Shown: positions 7,685-42,767, counted from the first letter of the stretch. The stretch: DNA of 64,000 nt from Chloroflexota bacterium (GCA_026705025.1 JAPPBN010000030.1:12822-76821); one strand, 5' to 3'. A program made the numbers and translations. The notes: a model not told the origin generated them from the sequence alone.

Positions 7685-8029
7685 ATGCTCGAATTGGCGG
7701 TCTTTGAGGACCTTGCCGAACTGCGTGACGCGGTGTTGATTCTGGCCGGAATCGGCGGCTGTGTCGTGGCGTTGCTATTCCTCGCTGCCGCGGTCAAATT
7801 CTCGCTCGTGGCCTATCGGATCGTGCGGCGGCTCGAGCGCTTTCACGAGCGCCGGATCGCAGGCAACGTTGCGGCCGCCGACGCGAAGCTCGCTGCTTGG
7901 CTGGAGGAGGATCGCTGGTCGGTTCGAGGCGTCCTCGAGGTGCTGCAGCTCGCTGCGCAACAAGTACAGGCCCGGCGCAACCCGCCGCCGAAGAAGCGGC
8001 GTCTGTTCGGACTGCTGCCTCCCGCGTAG
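7685..8029 (+). CDS. hypothetical membrane protein
   Basis: 114 aa with one TM (ILAGIGGCVVALLFLAAAV), codon usage like neighbours, no recognisable family. Confidence 0.45.
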   Translation: MLELAVFEDLAELRDAVLILAGIGGCVVALLFLAAAVKFSLVAYRIVRRLERFHERRIAGNVAAADAKLAAWLEEDRWSVRGVLEVLQLAAQQVQARRNPPPKKRRLFGLLPPA

Positions 8030-12661: not shown

Positions 12662-12796
12662 AGCGGACAACCTGAAGCCGGGGCACGGCTGTCCGGCCGA
12701 CGTTGCTTGCCTGAGATTCACACTCGGTTAACACTCGGAACCAGGCATTGGCAATTGTCTCCAGGACTGGTTACCCTTGGAGGCACAACAGAATAT

Positions 12797-12948
12797 TCGG
12801 GCCGAATCCCTGTGATGCCCAACAGCGGACCAGGGAGCGGGGGACCCAACACTCTGGGGTGAATGCGAGACTCGTCTTCATTGAAGCGAAATCGCACGGC
12901 GCACTCCTTCGCGCCGAACCCGTCAGCTAACCCCGTAGGCGACCGAGG
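12797..12948 (+). promoter_or_regulatory. c-di-AMP riboswitch (ydaO/kimA class)
   Basis: GAAUCCC...GGAGCGGGGGACCCA...GGGGUGAAU...GCCGAACCCGUCAGCUAACCCCGUAGGCG. Matches the conserved cores I recall from B. subtilis ydaO (GAGCGGGGGACCCA, GGGGUGAAUC, CCCGAACCCGUCAGCUAACCUCGUAAGCG). Confidence 0.8.
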
Positions 12949-13139
12949 GAGATGCGCTGCGGAGCGTTTGCACCGAAGCGCAATTCAAGAACCCGTGTCT
13001 TGAGCACGGCTCCACCGGTTCGCCCAACTGTTGAGAGACAGTGATCGGCCGCGAACGTGAGAGTCACGTCGGGAGCGACCGCCCGGCGCACTCAGGGGCA
13101 CGGGTTTCTCGCTCGCCCGTCCCCGTCCTTCCTGGCCGA

Positions 13140-13200: not shown

Positions 13201-14016
13201 CTAGCGGCCGACGAAGTTCGGGGGACGCTTCTCGAGGAAGGCGCGGGCCGCTTCCTTGTTGTCTTCGCCCGTGAAGGACAGCATGACGTGCGATCCTTCC
13301 TGGTAGAGCGAGTCGCTCAGGCTTGACGTGGCGGCGTAGTTCAACGTCCACTTCATCATCGAGAGCACCGCGGTCGGACCCTGCGCCAGCTCGCGACAGA
13401 ATGCCAGACCCTCGGACAACAGATCGTCATGCGGCACGATCTTCGTGACGATGCCGAGCGCCTCGGCCTCGTCGGCGTTGATCCGACGGTCGAGCATCAG
13501 CAACTCACGAGCGCGTGTGATCCCGACCATCTGATTCAGGAACCAGGCGACGCCGTAGTCGCCCGAGACGCCGATGTTGCGGAACGCAGTCACGAAGCGC
13601 GCACGGTCCGAGGCAATCCGAAAGTCGGTCGCCAGGCACAGGCCGAGCCCGCCGCCGGCGGCCGGCCCGTTGACCAGCGACACGGTCGGCGTGCCCATTT
13701 CGTGCAACATCCCCGATGTCTGCTGTTGGCTGCGATGGCTACGCCGGTTGACTACACCCGGGCCAGGCGGAGTGCCGGAAGATCCGCGGCTCATGTTGTT
13801 GATGTCCGCTCCGGCTGAGAACCCACGCCCCGCACCGGTCAGCGCCACGCAGCGCACGTCCGGATCATCTTCACAATCGACCAGCGCTTCGGTCAGTCTC
13901 TGAAGCAGGTCGTCGCCGAAGGCATTCAAGCGCTCCGGTCGGTTCAGCGTGATCAGGGCGACGCCATCGTCGCGCTTGTCGAGGATGACCGTCGGTTCGC
14001 CGTTCGTGTCTGACAT
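13201..14016 (-). CDS. enoyl-CoA hydratase/isomerase family protein
   Basis: 271 aa. LTGAGRGFSAGADI and VNGPAAGGGLGLCLATD crotonase motifs. Confidence 0.85.
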   Translation of the reverse strand: MSDTNGEPTVILDKRDDGVALITLNRPERLNAFGDDLLQRLTEALVDCEDDPDVRCVALTGAGRGFSAGADINNMSRGSSGTPPGPGVVNRRSHRSQQQTSGMLHEMGTPTVSLVNGPAAGGGLGLCLATDFRIASDRARFVTAFRNIGVSGDYGVAWFLNQMVGITRARELLMLDRRINADEAEALGIVTKIVPHDDLLSEGLAFCRELAQGPTAVLSMMKWTLNYAATSSLSDSLYQEGSHVMLSFTGEDNKEAARAFLEKRPPNFVGR

Positions 14017-14087
14017 GTATCGGGCCTCTCACTGAGCATTGAATTCCTCCGCTCAATGCTAAGGCCAGACCTACCTACACTGACCTC

Positions 14088-20181: not shown

Positions 20182-21426
20182 CTAGGTGAGGGCGTCGGCG
20201 ATCGCCAGTTCCGCGATTCGTTCGTCGTCGTAGCTGAGGATGTCGCGCAGCACCAGATCGTTGTCTCGGCCGATTGACGGGGCAACCGAGCGGTAGCTGG
20301 GTGGCGTCTCCGTCATCTGCCCCTTGGCCGCCTCGAAGGTTGTCGTGCCGTGCTCGGGATGCTCCATGGCGACGAAGTGCCCACGATGCCGCATCTGCGG
20401 ATCCTGGGCGGCCGCCGAGCTGTTTGAGACCGCGTGGGCTGGCACGCCGAAGGCCTGGAGCATGTACTCGATCTCGACCGCGCCGCGTTCCGAAGCCCAG
20501 GTTGCAACGATGCCGTTGAGTTCGTCCTCATTCGCCCGGCGCGCGGCGAGGTCGGCGAAGCGGTCGTCGCAGGTCAGTTCGCCCTGGCCCATCGCTGAAC
20601 AGAGATTGGCCCAGTCGCCGTCGTCGCGGACGGCGATCGCGACCCAATCGTCGTCGCCGGATGCGGCATAGCAGCCGTGGGGCGCCATGTCGGGGTCGGC
20701 GTTGCCGACGAGTTGTGGGACGCGTCCGTTGACGTGGTAGTCGAGCAGCGCCGTGCTCATGAAGTGCAGAGACGACTCCGCCTGTGCCTGGTCGATGTAG
20801 AGTCCCTCGCCTGTCCGATCGCGGTGATCGAGCGCGGCGAGGATCGTTGGCAAGGCGAAGCGCGGGGAGAGGTAGTCGGTATAGGCCGAATACGGCCCGA
20901 TCGGCGAGCCGCCGGGATTGCCGGCCAGCGCGATGTACCCACCGATCGCTGCGCCCATCGTGCCGAATCCGGCAACCCGTGAGAGCGGCCCTTCCTGTCC
21001 GAAGAGGCAGGTCGAAAGCATGATCAGCTCTGGTTTGATCTGCCTGAGCGACTCGTAGTCCATGCCCCACGCGCGCATGGCGCGGGGCGAGAACGACTCG
21101 GTTAGGACGTCGCACCACTTGATCAGGTCGAGCAGGACGGCACGCCCCTCGTCGGTGCCGAGATTGAGCGAGAGTCCGAGCTTGTTGACGTTCATGTTGC
21201 CGAACAGGCCGGAGTGGTCCGGTCCCTGCCCGTTGTTGTGATAGGGACCAATCCCACGCGCCGTCTCGATCCGGTTGGCCGATTCGACGCGGACCACCGT
21301 CGCCCCGAAGTCGGCCATGGCGCGGGTCGCCGTTGGTCCGGCTACAACCCACATCAGGTCGAGCACCTTGAGTCCGGCGAGCGCGCCCTCGGCCGGGATT
21401 CCGGGAGCGTTGTTGAGCGTTGTCAT
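20182..21426 (-). CDS. family III CoA-transferase (CaiB/BaiF)
   Basis: 414 aa. LAGLKVLDLMWVVAGPTATRAMADFGATVVRVES N-terminal signature. Confidence 0.9.
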   Translation of the reverse strand: MTTLNNAPGIPAEGALAGLKVLDLMWVVAGPTATRAMADFGATVVRVESANRIETARGIGPYHNNGQGPDHSGLFGNMNVNKLGLSLNLGTDEGRAVLLDLIKWCDVLTESFSPRAMRAWGMDYESLRQIKPELIMLSTCLFGQEGPLSRVAGFGTMGAAIGGYIALAGNPGGSPIGPYSAYTDYLSPRFALPTILAALDHRDRTGEGLYIDQAQAESSLHFMSTALLDYHVNGRVPQLVGNADPDMAPHGCYAASGDDDWVAIAVRDDGDWANLCSAMGQGELTCDDRFADLAARRANEDELNGIVATWASERGAVEIEYMLQAFGVPAHAVSNSSAAAQDPQMRHRGHFVAMEHPEHGTTTFEAAKGQMTETPPSYRSVAPSIGRDNDLVLRDILSYDDERIAELAIADALT

Positions 21427-22668
21427 CTAGATCACCCCACGTTCCCGCAGGTCGCTGATCGCGTCGTCGTCGAGGCCGAGTTCCGCGTAGACCTCGGCGT
21501 TGTGTTCGCCGAGCGTTGGCGCTCGGCGACGGTACTCAATCTCGTTGTCGGAGAGCTTGACGAACGGCCCGGGGAACCGCACCGGGTCCGGCCAGCCGGG
21601 CATCTCGTGCTCGCGCCAGAACTCCCGTGCCTCGAACTGCTCCGAGTTGGCGACTTCGTCGACGGTCGTGACGGGGACGATCAGGAGTGAGCGCGACTGG
21701 GCCTCTGCGAACAGCTCGTCGCGGCTGCGCTTCTTCAGGAACTCGCCGACCACCTCCATCAACCGGGCCCAGTCGGAGAGCGGCCGCGCGCCGGAGATGA
21801 ACTCCGCGCCGAGACCGATCCAGTCGAGATCTCGGTCCTCGAGCGAGCACTCGCCTTCGTCGTACATCCACTCGAAGAGGCGTCGCGAGAACGGTCCGAT
21901 GCCCGAGCCGAAGAGGAAGGTCAGGGAGATGTATCCGTCGGCGACCTCCCAGATCAGTTTGCCGGTGAACGGCCCGACAGCCATGCCGCCGGCGACGCGG
22001 GCAGTCTCGGCCGCTCCGATCGAGGCAGCGAGATTGGCCGACATCGTGGCGGCGGCCACGGATTGTTGGGCCGAAATGTCGATGTGCTGTCCGCGGCCGA
22101 TCTTGCTTCGCGCGCGCAGCGCGACCATGGCGGCGATCGCCGCTTCGCCGCTGGCGTGACTCCAGGCCTGCGGCACGGACACGCGAACCGGCGCCTCACC
22201 GGCGCCGCCCGAGAGAATCAGCGGTCCGCCTGCCGCCATAAGGATCAGGTCTGTCGCCTGGTATCCAGCTTTGGGGCCCGATTGTCCGAACGCGGAGATT
22301 GATGTGTAGATGAGACCGTCATGATCCGCCGACAGGTCGTCGTAGCCCAGCCCGCGAGCGGCCATCGCGCCGGGGTCGGCGGACTCGAGGACGAAGTCGG
22401 CGCCGGCGGCGAGTTGGCGGATCAGAGCTTGACCGTCCGGATGGTCGAGGTTGCAGGTGATGCCGCGCTTGTTGCGCGCGTAGGCCCACCAGAAGAGCGA
22501 GCGGTCGGGCCCGGGATCGTCGCCGGCGAAGGGTCCGACAGCTCGCGCTGATGATCCATCAGGCGGCTCAATCGCGATCACGTCGGCGCCCAGGTCGGCG
22601 AGGATCTGGCCGGCCAACATGCCGCGCTGATCGGTCAAATCCAGCACGCGATACGGCGATAACAGCAT
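21427..22668 (-). CDS. family III CoA-transferase (CaiB/BaiF)
   Basis: 413 aa. YRVLDLTDQRGMLAGQILADLGADVIAIEPP. Abuts the downstream paralog with no gap. Confidence 0.9.
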   Translation of the reverse strand: MLLSPYRVLDLTDQRGMLAGQILADLGADVIAIEPPDGSSARAVGPFAGDDPGPDRSLFWWAYARNKRGITCNLDHPDGQALIRQLAAGADFVLESADPGAMAARGLGYDDLSADHDGLIYTSISAFGQSGPKAGYQATDLILMAAGGPLILSGGAGEAPVRVSVPQAWSHASGEAAIAAMVALRARSKIGRGQHIDISAQQSVAAATMSANLAASIGAAETARVAGGMAVGPFTGKLIWEVADGYISLTFLFGSGIGPFSRRLFEWMYDEGECSLEDRDLDWIGLGAEFISGARPLSDWARLMEVVGEFLKKRSRDELFAEAQSRSLLIVPVTTVDEVANSEQFEAREFWREHEMPGWPDPVRFPGPFVKLSDNEIEYRRRAPTLGEHNAEVYAELGLDDDAISDLRERGVI

Positions 22669-22728
22669 CAGGCGGCCTCCTCCCCCTCGGCGATTGAAGG
22701 GTATCGCAAGCGACGAGCGGTCGGCGGC

Positions 22729-23799: not shown

Positions 23800-23847
23800 A
23801 GCATGCTCCCTACCAAAGACAGTGGAAGCCTAACGAAACGCCGACCC

Positions 23848-24590
23848 ATGCCCTTTGCTGAGATCAACGGACTACAGCTCTTCTATCACGAACAGGGACC
23901 GGTTGATCCTGATGCGCCGACGATCGTCTTCGTTCATGGCACGCAGGGCAATGCCTCGCTGTACGCGGGTCTGATGGATGCGCTCTCTGACCGATTTCGC
24001 TGTGCGGTACTGAACCATCGCGGGCGTCCGCCGTCGGAATCGCCGGACGATGCATCGATGTACAGCATCGAGCAGTTTGCCGACGACCAGGCGTCGTTCA
24101 TCGAACAACGAGGCTACGAAAACATCACCATGATGGGCTGGTCGCTGGGCGTGCGGACGACGCTGGCTTACCTGCATCGGCACGGATCGGGTCGGGTGGG
24201 TCAGGCGATTCTCGTCGCCGGGCCTCCATCTCCGAACTTCGGCGGGCAAGCGTTGACGCCTCCCGATCAGAGCGCGCCGCCGCGCGAGGTGTGGGGGGAG
24301 CAGTTCAGATCGTCGACCGAGGCGTGCTGGGAGGGGTCGCAGCATTCGAGGGCCACGTGCGACCTGGAAGCATCGCAATCCCGGTCGCAATCTTTCCCGG
24401 CCGACATGATCCGATCTGTCCACATGCGGCGGCTGAGTTCATGGCTCGGGAGATTCCGCACGCGACGCTGAGGACGTTTGAGGAGTCGGGCCACGCGCCG
24501 CTGGTCACTGAGGCTGAACGCTTCGTGGAGGAGACAGCCGCATTCATCAAGCGCTGCGAAGCGGCTCGCTCGGCCATTACTGGGGACTAG
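23848..24590 (+). pseudogene. alpha/beta hydrolase, frameshifted
   Basis: N-terminal part (IVFVHGTQGN, GWSLG nucleophile elbow) is in the frame of ORF 23803-24471. The C-terminal part (IPVAIFPGRHDPICP...ESGHAPLVTEAERF) is in the frame of ORF 24291-24590. The switch coincides with a G6 run at 24293-24298. Confidence 0.65.
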
Positions 24591-24647: not shown

Positions 24648-25313
24648 CTAGCCCTCGGCCAGTTCCTTGACCAACTCGATGAGGGCGTCGGCCCGGGTCG
24701 GGCCGCGTTCGCCGTTGATCACTACGGTGGGCGTACTGGCTAGGCCCTGCGAGACCGCGTCCGTGTGCTGCTGATAGATCCGGTCGAGGTGCGCGCCGTC
24801 GTCGATGCACTGCGCGAACTCGTCGGTGTCCAGACCGAATTCAGCCGCGACGGCAACTGCACCGTCGCGTGTATAGGCGTCGCGACTCGGACCTTCGAAG
24901 TAGTAGTCGTGGAACTCCCACCAGTGGTCCTGGTCGCCGGCGCATTCGGTCGCCAGCGCGGCCATCTCGGAGGCTGCGCCATGATTGATGATGTGCCGGT
25001 ACTCAAAGCGGGCCAGGCCCGTGGCCACCAATTCTTCTTCGATGCGCGGCCCAACCTGGGTCGCGAAATGACGGCAGCCGCCTCAAAGGAAGTCGGAGTA
25101 CTCCTGGATCACGACCGGCGCGTTGGGATCGCCGAGCGAGGCGCGATCGCGGATGACCTGGACCCGCGCCTGCGCTTCGGCTGACTCCGCCTCCTGCGAC
25201 GCGGTCGACTGGGTCCCGGTCTCCTGCGCGACATCGTCCCCACCCGAGCACGCAGCGAGGAACAACGCACTGAACAGCATGACCAGGACGGTGCTCCGGA
25301 GGCAGTGGTTCAC
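24648..25313 (-). CDS. DsbA-like thioredoxin-fold lipoprotein, predicted selenoprotein (UGGC motif; in-frame TGA at 25083-25085)
   Basis: ORFs 25083-25313 and 24648-25031 are in one frame (offset 435 nt). Reads ...APVVIQEYSDFL-U-GGCRHFATQVGPRIEEELVATGLARFEYRH.... Lipobox LFLAAC. GTG 25313 with GAGGAGG upstream. Confidence 0.8.
25046..25064 (-). promoter_or_regulatory. SECIS-like hairpin (gene 1)
   Basis: GCGACCC-AGGUU-GGGCCGC, starting 21 nt after the U of UGA. Confidence 0.6.
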
Positions 25314-25315
25314 GT

Positions 25316-26251
25316 TCAGCCCTCCTCAGACTCCAACTGTGCTGCGAGCTCTTGCACCTGCTCGATCAGCGCGTCGTTGACTGCCCCGCCCTCGCCGTTG
25401 ATCCGGATCGTCGGCGTCCGGTTGAACCCTGCCTGGGCGGCGGCTCGATGCTGTCCTTCGACCAACTCAAGGTGAACCTCGTTGTCCAGGCACTGAGCAA
25501 ACTGCTCCGTGTCCAGCGAGAGCGAGGCAGCCAGAGCGACGGCTCCGTCGCGGCTGAAGTCCTGCGTGGTCATGTAGTGGTCGTGGAAGTCCCGCCAGCG
25601 GCCCTGATCGCCGCCGCACTCAGTGGCCAATGCCGCGGCGACAGAGGGCGGACCGTGATTGAGAATGTGCCGGTACTCGAATCGCGCCAGGCCGGTGCGC
25701 ACCAGTTCGTCGATCACGCGCGGCTCAACCTGAGCCGCGAACCTGCGGCAGTTTCCTCAAAGGAAGTCCGAGTACTCGGTGATCACGATCGGGGCGTCGG
25801 GATTGCCAACGACGTTGCGATTGGCGAACAGCCCGGCCCGATGTCCGGACTCGATGATCTGGCCGACCATCGCCTCCGGCTCAGCTTCAGTCTCGGCCGA
25901 GGGCTCATCCTCGGTCTCAGCCTCTTCGCTCTGCTCTGACGCCTGCGGCTCGGCCCTCGTTGCCTGTTCTTGCTCGGCCGCGTCGGTCAGGCCGGCTTCG
26001 TCGGCGGACTCACCAGCTTGTTCGGCTTCCACTGGCGACGATTGCTCTGCGGCCTCGTCCTCAGCCGTCTCGCTCTGGCCCGCCCGGTACGAAGTCGCCG
26101 GCTGCTCTTGCTTCGCCTCTGACTGTGCGGCTATAGATGTATCGCTTGTCCGCGATTGTTGCCTTGCATCATCGTCAGTCGAACACGAGAGGAACAGCAC
26201 GGTGATTGCAGTGATGAGGGTTGCGGCACGCCAATATGATGAGTGCTTCAT
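25316..26251 (-). CDS. DsbA-like thioredoxin-fold lipoprotein, predicted selenoprotein (UGNC; TGA at 25757-25759)
   Basis: ORFs 25757-26251 and 25316-25717 are in one frame (offset 441). Reads ...APIVITEYSDFL-U-GNCRRFAAQVEPRVIDELVRTGLARFEYRH.... Lipobox LFLSC plus acidic/Gln-rich linker. Confidence 0.8.
25719..25739 (-). promoter_or_regulatory. SECIS-like hairpin (gene 2)
   Basis: CGCGGCUC-AGGUU-GAGCCGCG, perfect 8-bp stem. Confidence 0.65.
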
Positions 26252-26254
26252 TGG

Positions 26255-27265
26255 TTATCGCTCCGCATCATCCGTCTGCTTCCTTTGCGCTTGCTCTTGT
26301 CCCCGATTTAACAGATCCTCCACCTGTTCGAGCAACGCATCACTGATCACCGAGCCGCCCTCCATACTGATCTCAACATAGAGTGCCGGTGTGGCTCCTC
26401 GTTCCTCGGCCTCGCGATGCTGATCCATCACGTAGTCGAGATATCTCTGACTATCGATGCACTCAGCGAACCGCGCTGTGTCAAGCGAGAACGACTCTGC
26501 CACGGAGATGGCGGCCGCGCGGCTAAAGTCGCTCGTCGCCATGAAATGATCATGGAAATCCCACCAAGCTTCCTGGTCCCCTCCACACTCCGTGGCAATG
26601 GCGGAGAAGACTGAGGGCGAGCCGTGAGTCAGGTAGTGATGGTAAACAAAGCGGATTTGACCGCCGCGGATCAACTCTTGGATCAGTCGCGGTTCAACCT
26701 GAGCCGCGAAGGTGCGGCAGTGAGGTCAAAGGAAGTCTGAAAACACCGTGATTGTGACCGGCGCCAATGGGTTGCCGACGGAGTTCCTATCCGCGAACAA
26801 CCCGGCTCGGTGTCCCGACTTGATTACTTGCCCGCCCATCTCCTCCTGTTCGACGGACGACTGCTGTTCGGCCGGCTCGCCCCTCGGTTCGCCACCGTGT
26901 TCAGCCTCCTCGGTTTGGTTGGACGCTTGCCGCTCGGGCTGAGCCTCGGTGTAGGCCTGTACGGTCTGCGTCGACTGCTCCCGTTCAGCAGTCTCGCTTC
27001 TCTGAGGTTCCTTAGCATGTTCGTCTGCGGCAAACCGGTCCGGCCGCTGTCGCTCCCGGGGGACCTTTTGCTCGGTGAGGTCGTCTTGGCCCGACTGGGC
27101 CTGGCGGCTCTGACGGGAACTCGCTGGTTGTTCTTTTGGCTGCCCGTTTGCTTGTACTGACGCAGCCGAACGCTCATGGCGCGGTGGCACCTCTTCGGAA
27201 CTTCTCGAACACCCGATGAGCAACATCGCAGTTGCTGTCAAGACGATGCCCGATTTGAGCATCAT
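26255..27265 (-). CDS. DsbA-like thioredoxin-fold lipoprotein, predicted selenoprotein (UPHC; TGA at 26726-26728)
   Basis: ORFs 26726-27448 and 26255-26674 are in one frame (offset 471). Reads ...APVTITVFSDFL-U-PHCRTFAAQVEPRLIQELIRGGQIRFVYHH.... Start ATG 27265 (MMLKSGIVLTATAMLLIGC lipobox) overlaps the upstream stop. Confidence 0.8.
26689..26707 (-). promoter_or_regulatory. SECIS-like hairpin (gene 3)
   Basis: GCGGCUC-AGGUU-GAACCGC (one mismatch). Confidence 0.6.
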
Positions 27266-28020
27266 CAGCTGCCCTCCTGGTTCTCTACGGCTTCGGCGGC
27301 GGCGCGCACCTGCTCGATGATTCCGCTCAGTGAACGGGCGGCGGGCTGGCCGTTGATTCTGAACGTGGGCGTTCCGCTGATCCCGACGGAGCGTGCATGC
27401 CGCTGCATCTCGAGGATGCGGCCGCGATGCTCCTCGTTGTCGACACACTGCGTAAACCGAGCAACGTCGAGCCCGTTGTCCCGGGCCAGGTCAATCGCAC
27501 CCGCTCGCGTGAAGCTGCGTGCCTGGGCATCAAGCAGATAGGCGTCGTGAAACTCCCACCACGCGCCCTGATCACCCGCGCATTCGGTCGCCATCGCGGC
27601 AAACTGGGAAGCCGACCCGAAGATGATGAAATGGCGGTATTCATACCGGGCAATTCCGCTGTGAATGAGTTCTTCCATAATCTGCGGCTCAGCCTGAGCC
27701 GCGAATCGGCGGCAACTTGGTCACTGGAAGTCGGAATACTCGACGATCAGCACCGGCGCCTCGGGATCGCCGACCACGTTCCTGGCAAACGGCAGCCCCT
27801 CGCGATGGCCGAACGCAATCACGCCGGAATCTGCGCCCACCTCTGCTGGTTGGTCAGCTCCCTGTTCTTGCTGCATGATCGACGCTTCACGATCGGTGCG
27901 GTCACTGCGCACCGTGCCGGTTGAGACGTCCTCATCGGCGTCTCCGTCACCGGATCCGCAAGCCGATACGAGCAATCCGATTCCTGCGAGCAGGGCTACC
28001 AGAAACAGCGTCAGCTTCAT
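27265..28020 (-). CDS. DsbA-like thioredoxin-fold lipoprotein, predicted selenoprotein (UPSC; TGA at 27721-27723)
   Basis: ORFs 27721-28071 and 27265-27678 are in one frame (offset 456). Reads ...APVLIVEYSDFQ-U-PSCRRFAAQAEPQIMEELIHSGIARYEYRHF.... Start ATG 28020 gives MKLTLFLVALLAGIGLLVSAC. Confidence 0.8.
27684..27702 (-). promoter_or_regulatory. SECIS-like hairpin (gene 4)
   Basis: GCGGCUC-AGGCU-GAGCCGC, perfect 7-bp stem. Confidence 0.65.
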
Positions 28021-28067
28021 GGGTTGACTGTATCTGACACTGGTTTCGCCTGACGCAAACGACCCGA

Positions 28068-28859
28068 TCACTGTGCGGCCTGTCCGGCAGCTTCCCTGAC
28101 TGCCTCGTCGATCGCCTCGAAGGTCGGGTCGACTCTCCTGTCGTTGACGAACACCGACGGTGTTCCCGCTACGCCGCGCGCTTCTCCCTCAGCCTTGGAA
28201 GCGTCGACGAGAGGCGCCATCCGTCGCTCATTCATGCAGGTCACGAACTCTGGGTAGCTCAGACCTTCAAACGTGATCTGCCGCCGCAATCCGGCCTCGG
28301 TGAAGAGTGTCTCGTCGCCGGCCATGAATCTGTCATGCAGCGGCCAGAACCCGCCCTGTTCCGCCGCGCATTCCACCACTTGCGCGGCAAAGTCTGCCGC
28401 CTCGCCGCGAACTGGAAAATGTCGGAAGACGAAGCGGGCGATGCCCGGCTCGACCAGTTGCTCCAGAATCATGGGCTCAACCTGAGCCGCAAACCACTGG
28501 CAGCCGCCTCAAGTGAAGTCGCCGTAGTAGCGAATCTCCACCGGAGCGTCCGGTTCACCCAGAACGTGGCGCTCCGATCGCACCCCTTTGTGCTCACCGA
28601 CAATCTCGGTGGGGAGTTCAACAACCTGCTGTTCCTGAGGCTCCTCCTCCGACGCCGCAGTCTGCTGTTGCGGGTCCGCCTCGTCCACCGGCTGCTCTTC
28701 GACCTCCGCGTCCGGTGCTGCCTGTTGCTGTTGAGCGACGGTCGCCTGTCGCTGCACGCGCTCCGCCGCCGCCGTCCCCGTTGGCTGCCCCTCCCCGCCC
28801 GATCCGCAAGCAACCATCACCAGCCCGACCATCGCCGATGCGATAGAGAACCACCTCAT
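28068..28859 (-). CDS. DsbA-like thioredoxin-fold lipoprotein, predicted selenoprotein (UGGC; TGA at 28509-28511)
   Basis: ORFs 28509-28859 and 28068-28472 are in one frame (offset 441). Reads ...APVEIRYYGDFT-U-GGCQWFAAQVEPMILEQLVEPGIARFVFRHFP.... Lipobox LVMVAC. Confidence 0.8.
28473..28490 (-). promoter_or_regulatory. SECIS-like hairpin (gene 5)
   Basis: GCGGCUC-AGGUU-GAGCCC. Confidence 0.55.
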
Positions 28860-32984: not shown

Positions 32985-33680
32985 TCAGACCGGCGGACCA
33001 TGCGTATGACGCTCCAGCGCCGACAACCGCTGTTCAATCGCCAGCAACCGACCGTCTCCGTAGCCCGACAGCCAGGCGACGCGCTCAAGCAGGGCCGCCC
33101 AGGGAAAGTCCTTCCCCGGATCCGACTTCTGACGGGTCAACTCGCTGTGACCGACGTGGTGCGTCCGATCGATCGGGATGCCGTACTTGCGGCAGACGTA
33201 GGCCGACCACGCCGCGACGGTCTCGAACTGCCGACTGCCCGGGTTGAACGTCTGGCCGATCTCGCGGGCGTAACCCTCGATCTCGATTGAGAGCATGCAG
33301 GCGTTGTAGCTGACGTACTCGTCCCGCCACCACGACGGCCGCGGCAGGACCAGGTCCTTGCGCCGGACCCCCTGGGCCCAGGCGAAGTCCGCGTCGCGCA
33401 CCATCTGGTACAGATCGCCGTCCGAGTCGGCGTAGTAGTTGGTGCTGGCATTGGCGCGAGGATCCTCAAACCAGGCTGGAGTGACCTCGTTGTCGTCCCA
33501 CGGTTCCTCCGGCGTGTGGTAGCAAATCGCCACGAACCGCCGCGTCGCCCCCGAGTAGGGCCGCGACGCGGCGGTGTAGTAGTTGCTCGGATGCGCAGGG
33601 CGCCAAATCGTCCGCGCGCCCTCGGGCAGACCCGTGAGGCCGCTCAGGTCTGGCGCTGGCGCAGTCACGTCCGTCGTCAT
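32985..33680 (-). CDS. N-acetylmuramoyl-L-alanine amidase (PGRP/Amidase_2-type endolysin)
   Basis: 231 aa from ATG 33680 (ATGA overlap with the upstream gene). ICYHTPEE, NASTNYYADSDGDLYQMV, SIEIEG, HHVGHSELT..KSDPG. Confidence 0.8.
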   Translation of the reverse strand: MTTDVTAPAPDLSGLTGLPEGARTIWRPAHPSNYYTAASRPYSGATRRFVAICYHTPEEPWDDNEVTPAWFEDPRANASTNYYADSDGDLYQMVRDADFAWAQGVRRKDLVLPRPSWWRDEYVSYNACMLSIEIEGYAREIGQTFNPGSRQFETVAAWSAYVCRKYGIPIDRTHHVGHSELTRQKSDPGKDFPWAALLERVAWLSGYGDGRLLAIEQRLSALERHTHGPPV

Positions 33681-33952
33681 TCCGCACCTCCAGTCTTCCC
33701 GTCGCGGGCGCGCAAGAGTCCGTAGCCCGCAGCGATCGCAATAGCGATCGAGCGCACGGCGTCGGAGGCCTGAGCGCCCACGGCGCCCGTCTCCAGCAGC
33801 GCCCAGACGCCAATCACTCCCAGCGCGATTAAGGCCCGGACGCTGCCTCGGGGCAGCCACAGCGGATCGTGCTGGCCATCGCGAGCGCGCTCAGCCGTTT
33901 CGGATGGATGTTGTTGTTCACTCATGGTTCGTTCCGTTTCTGTTGCAGTCAC
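33677..33952 (-). CDS. holin-like small membrane protein
   Basis: Two hydrophobic helices (ALIALGVIGVWALL, IAIAIAAGYGLL) directly upstream of and overlapping the amidase gene. Start uncertain (GTG 33952 or ATG 33925). Confidence 0.5.
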   Translation of the reverse strand: MTATETERTMSEQQHPSETAERARDGQHDPLWLPRGSVRALIALGVIGVWALLETGAVGAQASDAVRSIAIAIAAGYGLLRARDGKTGGAE

Positions 33953-36429: not shown

Positions 36430-36441
36430 GAACACAAGTTC
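36430..36441. promoter_or_regulatory. perfect GAAC-N4-GTTC dyad (LexA/Cheo-box-like)
   Basis: cataGAACACAAGTTCcctattgt, 93 nt upstream of the scaffold-like gene start. Confidence 0.35.
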
Positions 36442-36503
36442 CCTATTGTGCCCCCGGCAACACCCTCAAACTTGGAGGCCCCTACGAGATACAAGATCTG
36501 GTT

Positions 36504-36536
36504 CCTTCTCCCTGAGGGAGAGGGTTAGGGTGAGGG
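36504..36536. repeat. REP family 2
   Basis: ccttctccctgagggagagggttagggtgaggg. Confidence 0.8.
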
Positions 36537-36635
36537 CCCTTCAGCGATCGAGCCAGGCCAACTTCCCACCGCCAAACAGCAAACGCATCGAATTTTCTGG
36601 CGCTAGTTGGTCAAAACCTGACAAAACTGAGCCAG

Positions 36636-36675
36636 ATCTGGACCAATCTGGACAAATCTGGACAAATCTGGACGC
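36636..36675. repeat. four tandem 10-bp units ATCTGGACAA (iteron-like)
   Basis: atctggacca atctggacaa atctggacaa atctggacgc. The reverse-complement 16-mer gtccagatttgtccag recurs at 52575-52590. Confidence 0.8.
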
Positions 36676-36799
36676 CAGAACGCGCGATTCTCAGTCCACA
36701 ACAGCAGATCAACCAATCGCCTCCCAAAATCGCCCGCCCGCCCCACATCCCTCCCGGATCGGTGATTGGGCCCTCGATCGCTGCAAGTATCCTGACCCA

Positions 36800-39226
36800 A
36801 TGCTCAACGACACCCGAATTCTCGACCTCACCGACGAACCGCTCGCCCTCGGCGCGCGCATGCTCGCCGATATCGGCGCCGACGTCGTCCGCATCGAAGA
36901 CGCCCGCGGCGACCAGCTCCGCATGCGCGAACCAGCCATCAATGGCGACGCGCCCAGGGCCGAGCGCGGCTGGGCCCACCTGCTCTACAACGCCGGCAAG
37001 CGCTCCGTCGCCGTCAATGTCGACGATCCCGAGACCTGGACCCGGATCGAATCGCTGCTGCCGCACTTCGACGTAGTCCTCGCCCCGCTGGAACCGGCCG
37101 ATGCGCTGGCCGACTGGCTCGAACGCGGCCGCAACGGCGAGTGGTCCGCCGAGATCCCCATCGTCGACGCCGTCTTCCGCCGAGGCGCCGACGAGCCGAT
37201 GACCGACCTCACCGCCATGGCCGCCGGCGGACACATCGTGCTCAACGGCCATCCCGAAGACCCGCCCGTCTGGCCGGCCGGCAACCTCTCCCACAAGCAA
37301 GGCTCAATCGCCATGGCCGAGGCAGCCATGGCCCTGATCATGCAGCGTCGACGCGGCGGCGAGGTCGGCCGGATCACGGTCGGCATCCAGGAAGCGGTCA
37401 CCTTCACCACCCTGCAGACCGCCAGCGGCAACTGGTGGACCTGGCACGGCACCTCGCCCAGCCGCCACATCCCCATCGGCTCCGGCGTCACCTTTCAAGC
37501 CAAAGACGGCCACTGGCTCTCCTTCACCATCCACCCGCCGCACTGGTACCGATTCGTCAACTGGGTCGACGACGTGCTCGGCCTCGAAGAGGGCGAACTC
37601 AGAGGCGAAGACTGGGACGACGAGTTCTGGCGCGAGCAGCACCAACCAGAGATCGTCCCCTGGATCGACCGCCTCTGCAAGGCCCTCACCGTGGCTGAAC
37701 TGCACGACAAGGGCCAGGAACTCGGACTCCTCGTCCTACCGATCAACACGGTCGAGGAAGTCGCCAACGACCCCCACTTGATTGCAAGGGGCTACTACCA
37801 GTCCGTCGACCACCCCCAGCTGGCAACCAGCCTCATCCTCCCCCGCTCCCCAATCCGAACCCGAGGCGAACAAACCCGCGCCCGGCGAGCCCCCACCCTC
37901 GGCGAGCACAACCGCGAGATTCTCCAGACCTTCCCTTCCGGGGGAGATGCCGCGGAGCGGCCCAGGGGCCCCGCTCCAAACCAGGCGCCAGTCCTCTTCA
38001 ACGGCACACCCCCGCCACCACGAAAACCCCTCGACGGCCTCCGAGTCCTCGACTTCACCTGGGCCATCGCCGGCTCGCTCGGCACCCGGCTGCTCGCCGA
38101 CCTCGGCGCAGATGTGCTGAAGATCGAATCCGAATCGCGAATCGACCCGATCCGCTATCGAGGCGTCCAGCCGCCCGACCACTTCTCGATCAACACCAAC
38201 GGCACCTTCAATGACTGCTCCGGCGGCAAGAAGTCGGTCACGCTCAATCTCAAGACTGAAGAGGGAATCGAAGCCGTCCGCGAACTGGCCCAGCATGCCG
38301 ATCTCGTCACCTCCAACTACACCCCCTACCGGCTCGACCGCTGGGGCATCGGCTATGACGATCTGCGCCAGCTCAAGCCGGACATCATCGTCTGCAACGT
38401 CGCCGTCATGGGCATCGAGGGTCCGCGCGCCGAATGGCGCTCCTACGGCAACGGGATCGTCGCCATGTGCGGTCTTGCCCATCGCTCCGGATTCCCCGGT
38501 AAAGCGCCGATTGGACTCGGAACCCTGCACACCGATTTCACCGTCCCCTACTACCTGTCAACCTCAGTCATGGCCGCCCTCGACCATCGAGAGCGCACTG
38601 GCGAGGGCCGCTACCTCGAGATCGCCCAGTACGAGACTGCCGTCCAACTGCTTGACACCGAACTCATCGAAGCACTCAACGGTGCAGCTGAGCGTCCACG
38701 GATCGGAAATCGCTCGCTCTTCATGTCGCCGCACGGCGTCTTTCCCGCCGCCGGGGACGAGCGCTGGGTCGCGATCGCATGCCGCGACGACACCGACTGG
38801 CGCAGCCTCTGCCGGGTCATGGGCCGCGCCGACCTCGCGGCGAGGCCAGAGCTCGACAGCCTCGCCGGGCGCCAGGCCAACGAGGACGAGCTGGAAGCCG
38901 CCATTGCCAGCTGGACCCAAGCCCAGGACGACTGGACCTCGTACCGACTGCTGATCAATGCCGGAGTCCCCGCCAGCCCGGTCGAGCGTCTCGAGGACTT
39001 CTTCGACGGCCAGGACCGCGCGATGAGAGACAACTACAACCCTGCGGAATCGCCCGAGGGCTGCACATTCCAGATCCAGCAGGAGCCAATCATCTGGGAC
39101 GGCGAGCGCCTCCCCGCTGTCCGCGCTCCGATCTGGAGCGAGCACACCGAGGAAGTGCTCAAGGGTCTGCTGGGCTACAGCGACGACGATATGACCCGCC
39201 TCGCCGCCGCCGGCACGCTGGGTTAG
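36800..39226 (+). CDS. fused two-module family III CoA-transferase
   Basis: 808 aa from ATG 36800. Module 1 has TRILDLTDEPLALGARMLADIGADVVRIED...APTLGEHNREIL. A linker follows, then module 2 with LRVLDFTWAIAGSLGTRLLADLGADVLKIES...APIWSEHTEEVL. The 118 upstream codons of the tracked ORF run through repeats and are not coding. Confidence 0.85.
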   Translation: MLNDTRILDLTDEPLALGARMLADIGADVVRIEDARGDQLRMREPAINGDAPRAERGWAHLLYNAGKRSVAVNVDDPETWTRIESLLPHFDVVLAPLEPADALADWLERGRNGEWSAEIPIVDAVFRRGADEPMTDLTAMAAGGHIVLNGHPEDPPVWPAGNLSHKQGSIAMAEAAMALIMQRRRGGEVGRITVGIQEAVTFTTLQTASGNWWTWHGTSPSRHIPIGSGVTFQAKDGHWLSFTIHPPHWYRFVNWVDDVLGLEEGELRGEDWDDEFWREQHQPEIVPWIDRLCKALTVAELHDKGQELGLLVLPINTVEEVANDPHLIARGYYQSVDHPQLATSLILPRSPIRTRGEQTRARRAPTLGEHNREILQTFPSGGDAAERPRGPAPNQAPVLFNGTPPPPRKPLDGLRVLDFTWAIAGSLGTRLLADLGADVLKIESESRIDPIRYRGVQPPDHFSINTNGTFNDCSGGKKSVTLNLKTEEGIEAVRELAQHADLVTSNYTPYRLDRWGIGYDDLRQLKPDIIVCNVAVMGIEGPRAEWRSYGNGIVAMCGLAHRSGFPGKAPIGLGTLHTDFTVPYYLSTSVMAALDHRERTGEGRYLEIAQYETAVQLLDTELIEALNGAAERPRIGNRSLFMSPHGVFPAAGDERWVAIACRDDTDWRSLCRVMGRADLAARPELDSLAGRQANEDELEAAIASWTQAQDDWTSYRLLINAGVPASPVERLEDFFDGQDRAMRDNYNPAESPEGCTFQIQQEPIIWDGERLPAVRAPIWSEHTEEVLKGLLGYSDDDMTRLAAAGTLG
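37925..37972. repeat. REP family 1 copy inside a coding region (interdomain linker)
   Basis: cagaccttcccttccgggggagatgccgcggagcggcccaggggcccc, about 42/48 identical to the intergenic copy at 4644-4691. Confidence 0.75.
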
Positions 39227-39741
39227 CTCTGCCAGCGCCCCTTGCCCCAACCGCCCATGCCATCCCGATCGAAGCCGTTGTTCACGACATCTTCAATCCG
39301 GGTCGCTGCCTCCGACTTCTTCGTCTCGGCCTCTTCATCGGTCAGCTTGCCGGCCTCCACGGCCGCGTCGATCCGCTCGTTGGCCTTGACGACCAGCGCG
39401 TCGATCACCGTCTGCGCATCGACGCCGTTCTCCCCGGCAATCTCGGCCAGCGTCTTGCCTTCGGCGAGCGCAGTCTTCAGTCCGTCGACATCCGTGCCCA
39501 CCAGCTCGGCCAGCGCTGAAACACCGGCGCCGAACTTGCCGTGACCCCTGCGGCCTTCGCAGTCTTCCTTCTCCGATTCTCCTTCGCCCTCCGAGAATTG
39601 CTGGCCATGTTGAGTGCGATTGCCGTCTTCCGAACGTGCCGAGATGACCGTCACTGCTGCGACCCCGATCGAAGCAACCAGCGCCAGCGGCAGGAGCCAC
39701 TTGTAGGCCAGACCAATCCAGCGATTCGAAATTGTTTCCAC
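39223..39741 (-). CDS. hypothetical N-terminally anchored/secreted protein
   Basis: 172 aa. N-terminal TM WLLPLALVASIGVAAVTVI, then an acidic and helical region. Confidence 0.5.
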   Translation of the reverse strand: METISNRWIGLAYKWLLPLALVASIGVAAVTVISARSEDGNRTQHGQQFSEGEGESEKEDCEGRRGHGKFGAGVSALAELVGTDVDGLKTALAEGKTLAEIAGENGVDAQTVIDALVVKANERIDAAVEAGKLTDEEAETKKSEAATRIEDVVNNGFDRDGMGGWGKGRWQS

Positions 39742-39862
39742 CGGTCATTCCCTTCTTGCATCTGGGGGCCGTCCCCGATGCAAGAAACCTATGGAGACGA
39801 CGTAAGCGCCATCCGACCGGCAGGTATGCAGAGCGTCAACGCTCGGTGAAGTCTGGCGCTGG

Positions 39863-41206
39863 CTAGGGAATCTCGGGGTCGTAGTCCATCCCGATATGGC
39901 CGCGCTCCCGGAACGCCTCGTATTCCGACTCCGGATAGCCCAGCACCTCGCGATAGACGTAGTCGTTGTCTTCGCCCAGCGCGACCGCCGGCTTACGGAT
40001 CCCCAGCGGCGTCTCCGAGAACCTCATGAACGGCGTGTTGTAGCGGAACGAACCCACGTCGTCGTAAAGGTCGTGCTCTTCGTTCAGACCCCGGTGCTGC
40101 ACATGCGCATCGTCGTAGATCCGCGATGAATCCAGCACAGGCGCCGCGGGCACGCCGTGCGACTGCAACACATGCATCAGCTCATAATCCGTCTGAGTCG
40201 ATGTCCATTTCGCAATCTGCTCGTCCAGTAGGTCGTGACCTTCCAGACGCCCCGCCTCTCGCCGCAGTTCCGGCGCGCTTGCCCATCCCGGATCGCCCAT
40301 CGCCGCTCGCAGACCCAGCCACTGGTCGTCATCCATCACCGAGATCGAGATCCAGCGGTCGCTGCCGTCCGTCCCGTCGCCGTCCGATTTCGCCGGATAG
40401 AGGTTGTACGGAGCGTGTCCGTTGACCGATCGATTGCCGATCCGTTCCTGCACGACCCCATTGAACGAGTAGTCCATGAAAGCCTGTGCCAGCATCCCTC
40501 CTGCGCACTCCGCCTGCGCCAGCTCAATGAACTGGCCCTCGCCCGTCCGACGCCGGTGCCGCAGCGCCGCCATAATCGCGAACGCCGCGTGCGCCCCGGC
40601 GACATAATCCCCGGAAAAGATCGAAGTGATGTAGGACGGGTCAAGGTCGGGATAGCCGCGCAACAGCGTGTGTCCCATTACCGACTCGAGATGCACGCCC
40701 AACGCGCGTGCGAAGCGGTAGGGACCGTTCGACCCGTATGCGGGCATTCGCAGGGCGATGATGTCCTCGCGCGACTGACGCAAGAAGTCCGGTCCAATGC
40801 CCAGCTTTTCCAGCGTGCCCGAGGCATTGTTTTCGACCAGCGCATCCGATTTCGAGACCAGGTTAGCGAAGATCTCGCGACCTTCGTCGGAGACGAGATC
40901 GACGGTCATCGAGTGCTTGTTGCGGAACTGCTGGACGAAGGTCGGCGCGTAGTTCCAGGGCCGCGGTCCAGGTTCTGCGTTTGGGTAGCCCACCGCCCAG
41001 CCTGCGCCGGCTTTGACCATCTCCGCCGACGGCCGGGCCTGTCCGCCCCGGGTCATCGGTTGCCAGACGTGGATGTTCTCGACTTTGATCACTTCGGCGC
41101 CAAGGTCGGCCAACAGCGTTGTCCCGAAGGTCCCCGCCCAGACCACAGTCAGGTCAATCACGCGAATGCCAGAGAGTGGCAGAGTCAAGGCTGGATCGCT
41201 ACTCAC
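39863..41206 (-). CDS. family III CoA-transferase
   Basis: IRVIDLTVVWAGTFGTTLLADLGAEVIKVEN. GTG 41206 preferred (8-nt overlap with the upstream stop); ATG 41251 is the maximal ORF. Confidence 0.85.
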   Translation of the reverse strand: MSSDPALTLPLSGIRVIDLTVVWAGTFGTTLLADLGAEVIKVENIHVWQPMTRGGQARPSAEMVKAGAGWAVGYPNAEPGPRPWNYAPTFVQQFRNKHSMTVDLVSDEGREIFANLVSKSDALVENNASGTLEKLGIGPDFLRQSREDIIALRMPAYGSNGPYRFARALGVHLESVMGHTLLRGYPDLDPSYITSIFSGDYVAGAHAAFAIMAALRHRRRTGEGQFIELAQAECAGGMLAQAFMDYSFNGVVQERIGNRSVNGHAPYNLYPAKSDGDGTDGSDRWISISVMDDDQWLGLRAAMGDPGWASAPELRREAGRLEGHDLLDEQIAKWTSTQTDYELMHVLQSHGVPAAPVLDSSRIYDDAHVQHRGLNEEHDLYDDVGSFRYNTPFMRFSETPLGIRKPAVALGEDNDYVYREVLGYPESEYEAFRERGHIGMDYDPEIP

Positions 41207-42419
41207 CCAGCGCTCCCGTCGCTCGCAGATCCCCGATCTCTGACGAGCCAAACCCGCACTCCGACAACACCTCGTCCGTGTGCCCCCCCAGCTTGGGCGC
41301 CGGGCGCCTCAGCGACCAGGGTGAGGCCGACATCATGAACGGGCGGCCGGGAATCTGGACTTCACCCAACTCGTCGTGATTGGTCTCGGCCCAGAAGCCG
41401 CGATCGCTGAAGTGGGTGTCTTCGAAGAGCTCGTCGACCGAGAACAGTGGGCCGCAGAGCACCTTCGCCTCTCGCGCCTCGGCCCAGATCTCACGTTTGG
41501 TCCGCTCAAGCGCCCAAGGCAAGAAATGGGCGTTGAATTCTTCAACCAGCGCCGGATTTACTCCGGCGCCCGGCCGCCACCACTTCTCCTCCTGCAGCCA
41601 CTCGGGGCTGCCTAGCATCTCGTCCAGGCGCGGGACCCGAATCGCGGCACCCGAAAATTCCACGTAGCCATCGGCGCAGGGATAGACGCCCGATAGCATG
41701 CCCGCCGCCGGACCGGGCGCGCGCAGCGACTTGCGCCCGGCGTACTCCCAGCCCATGGTTGTCGCGTGGCGGCGGTCGACGCCGTTGAACTGTGCATCGG
41801 CCATGGCGAAGTCGACGTGCTGGGCGATGCCCTGCAGCTCGGCCGAGGTCAACGCTCCCATCGCCGCGGCCGCCGCTGCCGAGCCGCACTCGACGAGCGA
41901 AGCAGTGCCGTACATTTTGACCGGCTCACGATCCTGTACGCCGATCGAGTACATCTCACCGGCGAACCCGTACAGCACCAGGTCCGAGACCCGGTAGTCG
42001 CGGTAGGGCGAGTCGTGGCCGAACGGCGTGATCGAGACCATCGGCAGGTCGCCGCGCGACGCGCTCACCTGCTCCCAGCCGTAACCCAGCGACTCCAGCC
42101 GCCCGGCCGGCTGCGACTCGATTACGATGTCGGCCCGCCGCAACAGCCGCTCCATCACCGCTCTCGCCTCTTGCCGTTCCAGGTCAAGCACCATCGAGCG
42201 CTTGTTGGTGTTGAAGTAGAAGAAGGTCCCGGACCGTTCCGGCCCGCTGACGCCCTGATACCAGGGCCCGACTGACCGCGACGGATCGCCGCCGGGCGGC
42301 TCAACCTTGATCACGTCCGCGCCGAAGTCGGCAAACAGCTTGGTGCAGTACGGACCCGCGACGTGCTCGGTCAGATCGAGAACGGTGACGCCTTCGAGGG
42401 GTCCAGCTGGGTCCGCCAT
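41199..42419 (-). CDS. family III CoA-transferase
   Basis: 406 aa from ATG 42419: MADPAGPLEGVTVLDLTEHVAGPYCTKLFADFGADVIKVEPP. Confidence 0.85.
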   Translation of the reverse strand: MADPAGPLEGVTVLDLTEHVAGPYCTKLFADFGADVIKVEPPGGDPSRSVGPWYQGVSGPERSGTFFYFNTNKRSMVLDLERQEARAVMERLLRRADIVIESQPAGRLESLGYGWEQVSASRGDLPMVSITPFGHDSPYRDYRVSDLVLYGFAGEMYSIGVQDREPVKMYGTASLVECGSAAAAAAMGALTSAELQGIAQHVDFAMADAQFNGVDRRHATTMGWEYAGRKSLRAPGPAAGMLSGVYPCADGYVEFSGAAIRVPRLDEMLGSPEWLQEEKWWRPGAGVNPALVEEFNAHFLPWALERTKREIWAEAREAKVLCGPLFSVDELFEDTHFSDRGFWAETNHDELGEVQIPGRPFMMSASPWSLRRPAPKLGGHTDEVLSECGFGSSEIGDLRATGALGE

Positions 42420-42536
42420 GCGTCGGAGTGTAGGGGTAGCGTCGAAACACAGGCTCGGCAGCCGCGCTTCTCCAATGCGAACCGCAGCCGTTCTGAACAT
42501 AGAGCAGATAAACCAGGTATCCGCTATATTGACCAC

Positions 42537-42767
42537 ATGGCAGCAATGAATCCGATCCTTCGCATTCGCCGGGCATTCCGAGAGTTCGGCGCGACCTCCG
42601 CACAGGCCGACGAAGCGGTGAGCGCCGTTGACGAGTACTACGTGAGCCGGCAAGAGTTCGATGACCGGATCAGGGCCATCATGGCAGAGCAGACCAACCG
42701 CATACTCCTAGGCACATTCGTCCTGCTCAGCATCGCCGTCGGCGTGATTCTCGCTTTCGTCGCCTGA
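42537..42767 (+). CDS. small tail-anchored membrane protein (DUF1640-like architecture)
   Basis: 76 aa, MAAMNPILRIRRAFREFG...C-terminal TM LLGTFVLLSIAVGVILAFVA. Confidence 0.55.
   Translation: MAAMNPILRIRRAFREFGATSAQADEAVSAVDEYYVSRQEFDDRIRAIMAEQTNRILLGTFVLLSIAVGVILAFVA

Follow-up and report, generated by a model that had tools for sequence, protein, structure and literature searches.

In a 64,000-nucleotide (nt) stretch of DNA from a Chloroflexota bacterium (GCA_026705025.1, JAPPBN010000030.1:12822-76821), hereafter the window, the minus strand between positions 24648 and 28859 very probably carries one operon of five genes (g1 to g5) for selenocysteine (Sec)-containing, lipid-anchored extracytoplasmic thiol-disulfide oxidoreductases of the DsbA/MdbA/BdbD type (Thioredoxin_4). 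Ten open reading frames (ORFs) in this region fuse into five frames once one internal stop apiece is read through, in agreement with an earlier note on this DNA that had paired the ORFs in this way. Read-through translation yields exactly one internal stop per frame, and this stop is TGA in all five. The products, 221 to 336 amino acids (aa) long, share the context ...(Y/F)(S/G)DF(T/Q/L)-U-x-x-C-(R/Q)-x-F-A-(A/T)-Q(V/A)(E/G)P, where “U” marks the TGA. The predicted features of the array, including hairpins that resemble a bacterial selenocysteine insertion sequence (SECIS), are as follows:

28068-28859 (-): g1, predicted prolipoprotein, 263 aa; lipobox MVAC, Gln/Glu-rich tether, Thioredoxin_4/DsbA domain, U-G-G-C; ends with TGA
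28509-28511 (-): g1 in-frame TGA, putative Sec codon
28472-28490 (-): g1 SECIS-like hairpin; 6-bp core GGCUCA/UGAGCC intact, two outer pairs mismatched
27265-28020 (-): g2, predicted prolipoprotein, 251 aa from MKLTLF; lipobox VSAC, tether, DsbA domain, U-P-S-C; ends with TGA
27721-27723 (-): g2 in-frame TGA, putative Sec codon
27684-27702 (-): g2 SECIS-like hairpin GCGGCUCA-GGC-UGAGCCGC
26255-27265 (-): g3, predicted prolipoprotein, 336 aa; lipobox LIGC, long tether, DsbA domain, U-P-H-C
26726-26728 (-): g3 in-frame TGA, putative Sec codon
26689-26707 (-): g3 SECIS-like hairpin with one C-A stem mismatch
25316-26251 (-): g4, predicted prolipoprotein, 311 aa; lipobox FLSC, acidic tether, DsbA domain, U-G-N-C; ends with TGA
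25757-25759 (-): g4 in-frame TGA, putative Sec codon
25720-25738 (-): g4 SECIS-like hairpin GCGGCUCA-GGU-UGAGCCGC
24648-25313 (-): g5, predicted prolipoprotein, 221 aa; GTG start, lipobox LAAC, short tether, DsbA domain, U-G-G-C
25083-25085 (-): g5 in-frame TGA, putative Sec codon
25046-25064 (-): g5 SECIS-like hairpin GCGACCCA-GGU-UGGGCCGC; a U-A pair is now C-G (compensatory), one A-C mismatch

The spacing of the genes, which had been described as tight and proved to be so, fits a single predicted operon. The stop of g2 and the start of g3 share 1 nt (TGATG), with AGGAGGG just before; 3 nt lie between g3 and g4, and 2 nt between g4 and g5, with GAGGAGGG upstream of the latter gap. The gap between g1 and g2 is 47 nt if MKLTLF is the start of g2. 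No convincing terminator or promoter was identified within the array.

Profile searches were run on the read-through proteins with U written as C. All five matched Thioredoxin_4 (PF13462; E-values from 3e-22 to 5e-30, 80-105 bits against a cutoff of 23.2) and also exceeded the cutoff for DSBA (PF01323; 28-45 bits against 25.6), and the best NCBIfam match in each case was NF041057 (E-values from 8e-33 to 2e-42). In alignments to solved DsbA/MdbA structures, the U column coincides with the first Cys of SDFE-CPFC (phmmer; best match 4pwp, E = 1.7e-18), confirming the proposal that the UGA occupies the first Cys position of CXXC; BdbD (3eu3) and the Mycobacterium tuberculosis protein 4k6x align as well, and so does the cis-Pro GTP loop (GTP vs GTP). 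Among the five paralogues themselves, both CXXC columns and the TP motif are conserved. The lipobox pattern (PROSITE PS51257-type, [LVI][ASTVI][GAS]C) was found in all five proteins, with the Cys at residue 18-23 and Lys or Arg in the n-region, and the spacer between the signal peptide and the catalytic domain, approximately 25-150 residues long, is acidic and rich in Gln, Glu and Pro. With these domain and lipobox matches, the assignment of each gene to predicted lipid-anchored DsbA-like proteins holds, as the earlier note had it. All five paralogues also contain a second invariant Cys pair (C80 and C124 in g1; E-C-A/G ... Q/T/E-C) in the helical insert, which suggests a structural disulfide.

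When the g4 domain was searched against 5.8 billion proteins, 63 homologues were retrieved. All of them are fragments split at this site, comprising N-terminal pieces and C-terminal ones of about 133 aa. In the loci examined, the public gene calls are a “hypothetical protein” and a truncated “thioredoxin domain-containing protein”, so the expectation that gene callers would yield fragments was correct. In total, 92 DNA loci of relatives and homologues were fetched (L001-L092). Every orthologue (L001-L007 and L086-L089, from at least 7 other assemblies) shares the TGA at this column, and, as in the window, the arrays of the relatives adjoin a DUF885 gene. These arrays consist of 1, 3 or 4 genes compared with 5 in the window: three-gene arrays are found on a 3.15-Mb contig, a 4.97-Mb contig and several shorter ones, four-gene arrays on OZ244071.1 (a 3.2-Mb chromosome of a Dehalococcoidia metagenome-assembled genome, MAG), L087 and L089, and single genes, with a different N-terminal region, in L086 and L007 (OZ241375.1). 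At the U column, TGC or TGT is found in 109 of the more distant homologues, which come from many phyla.

The two single-gene loci deserve a separate comment. The context of the TGA is GDPF-U-GYC in L007 (around 6085-6090) and GDFL-U-GNC in L086 (7959), and the hairpin is the same as in the array; the N-terminal regions of these Sec DsbA-like genes do not resemble tethers, and no lipobox is evident.

Orthologues of g1 (L001, L003, L006, L087, L089) are 60-78% identical to the window protein, and the corresponding ranges are 70-83% for g2, 70-85% for g4 and 73-88% for g5. The paralogue types g1, g2, g4 and g5 are thus old ones that related genomes have kept, and g3 is an additional member of the g4 type that has diverged further. 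We estimated the ratio of nonsynonymous to synonymous substitution rates (dN/dS) by the Nei-Gojobori method for 44-46 orthologue pairs, separately for 35 codons before the TGA and about 145 codons after it. The median dN/dS was 0.13 before the TGA and 0.19 after it, with dS between 0.5 and 2.2 for the window's own pairs. Purifying selection acts on both halves of each gene, and the relaxation past the TGA that had been named beforehand as a test of coding status is not observed. Furthermore, the codon for the second Cys alternates between TGC and TGT in a stretch that lies ahead of any downstream start, which indicates that this stretch is translated.

The hairpin that the earlier note had reported in all five genes was recovered as a conserved stem. 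The consensus, GCGGCUCA-GGU-UGAGCCGC, begins 21 nt past the UGA and forms an 8-bp stem at +22 to +40, with the apical GGU loop 26 nt past the UGA. The same nucleotides encode the conserved peptide AAQVEP. Across 23 distinct sequences of the five paralogue types, the hairpin is nearly invariant, including the third positions of GCG-GCU-CAG-GUU-GAG-CCG, and the codons around it vary freely at synonymous sites. In these sequences, 95% of the alignment cells are paired in the named structure; sliding the 3' partners by 1-3 columns lowers this figure to 25-40%. Covariation is confined to two pairs, one of the changes being inherited by four sequences: U-A is replaced by C-G in the g5 lineage, where a synonymous change in a Thr codon is coupled to a Glu-to-Gly replacement, and A-U is replaced by G-C in one g2 orthologue, where Gln-to-Arg is coupled to Val-to-Phe. 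Under the bSECISearch rules, a bacterial SECIS is a stem-loop located just after the UGA, with an apical G and 16-37 nt between the UGA and the loop. Judged by hand, the geometry of the putative SECIS hairpin and its G-containing apical loop fit these rules.

For the stem-core pattern GGCTCA-N3-5-TGAGCC, 0.05 occurrences would be expected in the 64-kb window. Four are present, and all of them come after in-frame TGAs, in g1, g2, g4 and selD (see below); among the 92 fetched loci, the pattern is confined to Dehalococcoidia Sec loci. A scan of metagenomes with the 19-nt hairpin yielded 45 matches, and only 5 of these were in a Sec-DsbA context; the 19-mer by itself is not specific.

The selD gene, which encodes selenide, water dikinase, the selenium donor enzyme for Sec synthesis, is located about 29 kb from the array and itself appears to encode a selenoprotein:

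57533-58636 (-): selD, selenide, water dikinase, predicted selenoprotein
58577-58579 (-): selD in-frame TGA in LARCGG-U-GSK, at the column of Escherichia coli Cys17
58534-58550 (-): selD SECIS-like hairpin GGCUCA-CGUGU-UGAGCC; stem core shared with the DsbA-like genes

The SelD assignment is supported by scores of 339.8 bits to TIGR00476 (cutoff 125) and 305.1 bits to NF002098 (cutoff 299). The TGA is kept in two relatives (L091 and L092), and in the window and these relatives the hairpin covaries (GGCUCA/UGAGCC, GGCGCA/UGCGCC and CGCGCA/UGCGCG). Close SelD homologues have been called as N-truncated proteins of 336 aa. One SelD homologue is encoded on the 3,204,945-bp chromosome OZ244071.1, at a distance of about 30 kb from the four-gene array on that chromosome (L006), as in the window. 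The presence of one stem in two unrelated genes, in each case after a UGA at a redox Cys position, is hard to account for except by a common SelB-binding element.

Elsewhere in the window, TGA functions as an ordinary terminator: it is the terminal stop of 18 of the 45 Pfam-supported ORFs, including g1, g2 and g4, which excludes a reassigned genetic code. In-frame TGAs were seen solely at redox Cys columns, namely, the five CXXC motifs and Cys17 of SelD. A scan of the window for further in-frame TGAs based on the GC content of third codon positions was too noisy to bring out further selenoproteins. For the Sec machinery, the literature offers indirect support. Most bins of sponge symbionts contain both the SelA and the SelB COG (PMC5649159). 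In BSepDB, a database that takes in only species having the Sec pathway, two Dehalococcoidia MAGs rank in the top ten of bacteria by selenoprotein content, with 46 and 49 such genes (PMC13326102); the isolate name of one of these MAGs follows the same style as that of OZ244071.1. The lineage is thus already known to be rich in selenoproteins.

Thus, the five UGAs are most probably decoded as Sec, given the conservation of the TGA, the purifying selection, the covarying hairpin, the use of TGA as a stop in other genes and the Sec-containing selD with the same hairpin core. Several observations weigh against this interpretation or parts of it. Neither selA nor selB was found in the range searched, that is, the 64-kb window and the fetched loci, and ARAGORN, applied to the window and to 13 related loci, detected no tRNA and hence no tRNA-Sec. 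Likewise, selA and selB are absent from the 10-kb surroundings of selD in two complete relatives; a query with E. coli SelA returned only enterobacterial proteins among its best 120 matches. The nucleotides of the hairpin also encode a conserved peptide, so that its conservation is partly due to the protein. The folding energy of the 60-nt segments does not differ significantly from that of shuffled sequences in this GC-rich DNA (z from -0.5 to -1.7), so the z-scores are not used as evidence and the case for the hairpin rests on its conservation rather than on energy. Rfam scans over the region, both at the gathering threshold and with E-values up to 10, matched no SECIS family, a null result that is uninformative because bacterial SECIS elements are poorly covered by Rfam. 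With respect to the protein family, the NF041057 scores (114.0, 137.1, 132.1, 142.2 and 145.7 bits for g1 to g5) do not reach the equivalog cutoff of 190, so that g1-g5 are classified as a sister subfamily and not as equivalog members. No redox partner (VKOR, DsbB or CcdA) was seen among the window proteins. Finally, g3 has no orthologue in the sampled genomes, its nearest relatives being of the g4 type (52-58% identical), and with the mismatch in its stem, the activity of g3 appears less certain than that of the other paralogues.

The array might instead be dead, with independent or gene-converted nonsense mutations having left N-terminal stubs or no product at all. The fragmented gene calls and public annotation would suit such decay, as would the neighbouring alpha/beta-hydrolase gene (23803-24590), which looks frameshifted. 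Pseudogenes are nevertheless extremely unlikely, and effectively refuted by the TGA conservation and dN/dS: the TGA is retained at the same column in every orthologue, across four paralogue types and at least 7 assemblies at dS of 0.5-2; the genes contain no other stops or frameshifts; dN/dS past the TGA is about 0.19; and the stop is always TGA, never TAA or TAG, and always replaces the catalytic Cys codon. The preference of the earlier note for Sec over five independent pseudogenes is therefore supported by the orthologous TGAs, dN/dS, the covariation of the hairpin and selD. Just as unlikely is the possibility that each locus makes two polypeptides, an N-terminal lipoprotein and a separately initiated C-terminal fragment, which reassemble or not. 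ATG, GTG or TTG codons do occur 12-20 codons past the TGA and are used by gene callers, but these internal starts lack a ribosome-binding site upon inspection, the C-terminal fragment would have no signal peptide, and the cut would fall inside the active site of the thioredoxin fold. Moreover, the segment between the TGA and the next start (xxC-R-x-F-A-A-Q-V-E-P) is conserved as amino acids with synonymous variation, and is accordingly translated. Pseudogenes and split proteins were both excluded on the grounds of TGA conservation, dN/dS and the translated stretch ahead of the start.

Read-through that inserts an amino acid other than Sec is somewhat less improbable, though still very unlikely. 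The UGA could have been reassigned (to Trp, Gly or Cys) or could be suppressed by a near-cognate tRNA (Cys or Trp), and termination at UGA is comparatively leaky when the next nucleotide is C or G; that selA, selB and tRNA-Sec were not seen in the window and the fetched loci fits such a scenario. Genome-wide reassignment of UGA was excluded by its use as an ordinary stop, including at the ends of g1, g2 and g4. Suppression in general is countered by the restriction of in-frame TGAs to redox Cys columns, the conserved, covarying hairpin after each of them, the presence and conservation of SelD, and the reported abundance of selenoproteins in this clade (PMC13326102).

If the UGAs are indeed decoded as Sec, SelB and Sec-tRNA(Sec) would bind the hairpin on the translating mRNA, resulting in the insertion of Sec at the UGA. 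The Sec translocon would export the prolipoproteins, their lipobox Cys would be acylated, signal peptidase II would cleave them, and the acidic, Gln-rich tether of 25-150 residues, presumably disordered, would keep the catalytic domain off the membrane. The selenolate would attack substrate thiols or disulfides, and the reaction would be resolved by forming a selenenylsulfide with the CXXC Cys. A selenium center could provide for quicker exchange and resist irreversible over-oxidation in an oxic extracytoplasmic setting. The XX dipeptides (GG, PS, PH, GN and GG in g1 to g5) might tune the redox potential or the substrate range, such that the paralogues would split oxidase, isomerase and reductase roles. 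From published work on thioredoxin-fold variants with Sec in place of Cys, a U-x-x-C center should exchange faster, oxidize less strongly in thermodynamic terms and be less readily inactivated by over-oxidation. In view of these properties, isomerase, reductase or redox-defence roles are at least as likely as that of a primary oxidase.

The closest solved structures by sequence are MdbA/DsbA of Actinobacteria (4pwp, 4pwo and 7unn), BdbD of Bacillus subtilis (3eu3) and the DsbA-like Rv2969c of M. tuberculosis (4k6x and 4jr4), which share with the array the SDF-CxxC motif and the aligned cis-Pro GTP loop. These proteins are membrane-anchored extracytoplasmic oxidoreductases of monoderm bacteria that function in the oxidative folding of secreted proteins; they are Cys-type, are encoded by single genes and are reoxidized by VKOR or BdbC. 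Unlike these systems, the array has no VKOR/BdbC-type partner visible in its window. Multiplication of this domain is common: among the closest Cys-type relatives, taken as 50% clusters, multi-domain DsbA fusions with 2-6 Thioredoxin_4 domains per polypeptide predominate. In these fusions, the domains, mostly with Cys, reside in one ORF, whereas in the array every Sec domain is encoded separately, with a signal peptide and a predicted SECIS of its own. One lipoprotein ORF in another Chloroflexota MAG (L076, JBBIKA010000013.1, approximately 5760-7750, plus strand) contains three Thioredoxin_4 domains with CPYC, CPAC and TGA-PFC, where the TGA at 7267 is followed by a different hairpin, GCUCGUC...GACGAGC; this TGA may represent an independent acquisition of Sec or else a sequencing or pseudogene artefact.

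The NF041057 family (“Rcas_1661 family thioredoxin-like (seleno)lipoprotein”) resembles the array in being associated with Chloroflexota and in having a lipoprotein signal, a Thioredoxin_4/DsbG-like domain, and Sec or Cys at the first UxxC position. Proteins of this kind are listed in selenoprotein catalogues as “DsbG-like protein”, UxxC (PMC13188914). The array differs in its 3-5 tandem paralogues, its long acidic tethers and its scores, which lie under the family cutoff. DsbA-like and DsbG-like selenoproteins with UxxC were described in 2005-2006 (PMC1088965, PMC1794560) and counted in later surveys (PMC5029168, PMC13188914). The DsbA-like selenoprotein family of the Sargasso Sea/Global Ocean Sampling and genome surveys (Zhang and Gladyshev; PMC1088965, PMC1794560, PMC5029168) likewise has Sec in place of the first CXXC Cys and a bacterial SECIS just downstream, but belongs to COG2761/PF01323 (FrnE-type) and appears once per organism in the genome table, whereas the array consists of PF13462 lipoproteins.

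In a limited literature search, we found no mention of tandem arrays of the NF041057 family and no report of Sec genes arranged as 3-5 separate tandem copies in which every gene carries a lipobox, a tether and an almost identical SECIS of its own, and of which four types are conserved across a clade. The claim of novelty made in the earlier note was nevertheless overstated: the separate tandem Sec array was indeed not found reported, but the exported, lipid-anchored Sec oxidoreductase is an existing, curated concept (NF041057), and UxxC DsbA-like proteins have long been known. What is new is the five-copy array and the expansion of a sister subfamily into arrays of 3-5 genes with differing XX dipeptides.

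The array does not overturn the current understanding. It does change annotation, replacing ten fragments with five selenoproteins, and as selD is also truncated in public gene calls, the selenoproteome counts of a selenoprotein-rich clade would be altered. An array of exported Sec oxidoreductases with distinct dipeptides would be a test bed for the question of why Sec replaces Cys in oxidizing compartments, and is suited to asking how the XX dipeptide tunes a selenenylsulfide center. The uniform hairpin in two unrelated genes offers a lineage-specific SECIS consensus for finding the remaining selenoproteins. On a more speculative and, in our estimate, rather doubtful note, the entire extracytoplasmic thiol-disulfide system of this Dehalococcoidia clade, which is possibly sponge-associated, might have been rebuilt on selenium, with 3-5 Sec-DsbA lipoprotein paralogues of ancient divergence and differing XX dipeptides forming a graded surface redox relay (oxidase, isomerase, reductase) on their long acidic tethers, and with one lineage-specific SECIS stem (GGCUCA/UGAGCC), shared with selD, serving them all. 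If so, this would be the first described multi-component selenium-based system of oxidative folding or surface redox defence.

The GC content of the window is about 64%, and its nearest relatives are MAGs labelled Dehalococcoidia or “Chloroflexi bacterium”. Besides the genes discussed above, the window encodes short-chain dehydrogenases, enoyl-CoA hydratases and transporters of the major facilitator superfamily, a gene content which we take to resemble that of SAR202-type Chloroflexota. Seven paralogues of family III (CaiB-like) CoA-transferases are located within these 64 kb (20185-22728, 36431-42707 and 49380-50771), one of them a 931-aa stop-to-stop ORF with three separate stretches matching the CoA-transferase profile.

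Directly downstream of the array, the alpha/beta-hydrolase gene (23803-24590, plus strand) that appears frameshifted has its N-terminal part at 23803-24471 and its C-terminal part, which on inspection resembles the C-terminus of a hydrolase, at 24291-24590, in different frames; this gene is either a pseudogene or the product of an assembly error. On the other side, an NYN-domain gene (PF01936; 28950-29624, plus strand) lies on the opposite strand between the DUF885 gene and the array, a position occupied in related genomes by Asp_protease_2 or GIY-YIG genes instead.

A cyclic di-AMP riboswitch of the ydaO/yuaA type (RF00379; 87.7 bits against a cutoff of 38) was detected at 12790-12956 (plus strand), and the next well-supported ORF after it (13204-14028) is on the opposite strand. 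A lone gene resembling the large subunit of phage terminase (43053-44471, minus strand) lies near the DUF885 and CoA-transferase genes, with no other recognizable phage gene adjoining it and an Amidase_2 ORF about 9 kb away (32988-33890); it is syntenic in four of the fetched loci (L001 3697-5079, L002 3505-4893, L087 1-371 and L092 456-1895). Finally, an island of low GC content (52914-55571, plus strand; 56-60% compared with about 64%) encodes an 885-aa ATPase matching AAA_21/AAA_15 (AbiEii/OLD-like), which is probably a horizontally acquired defence gene.

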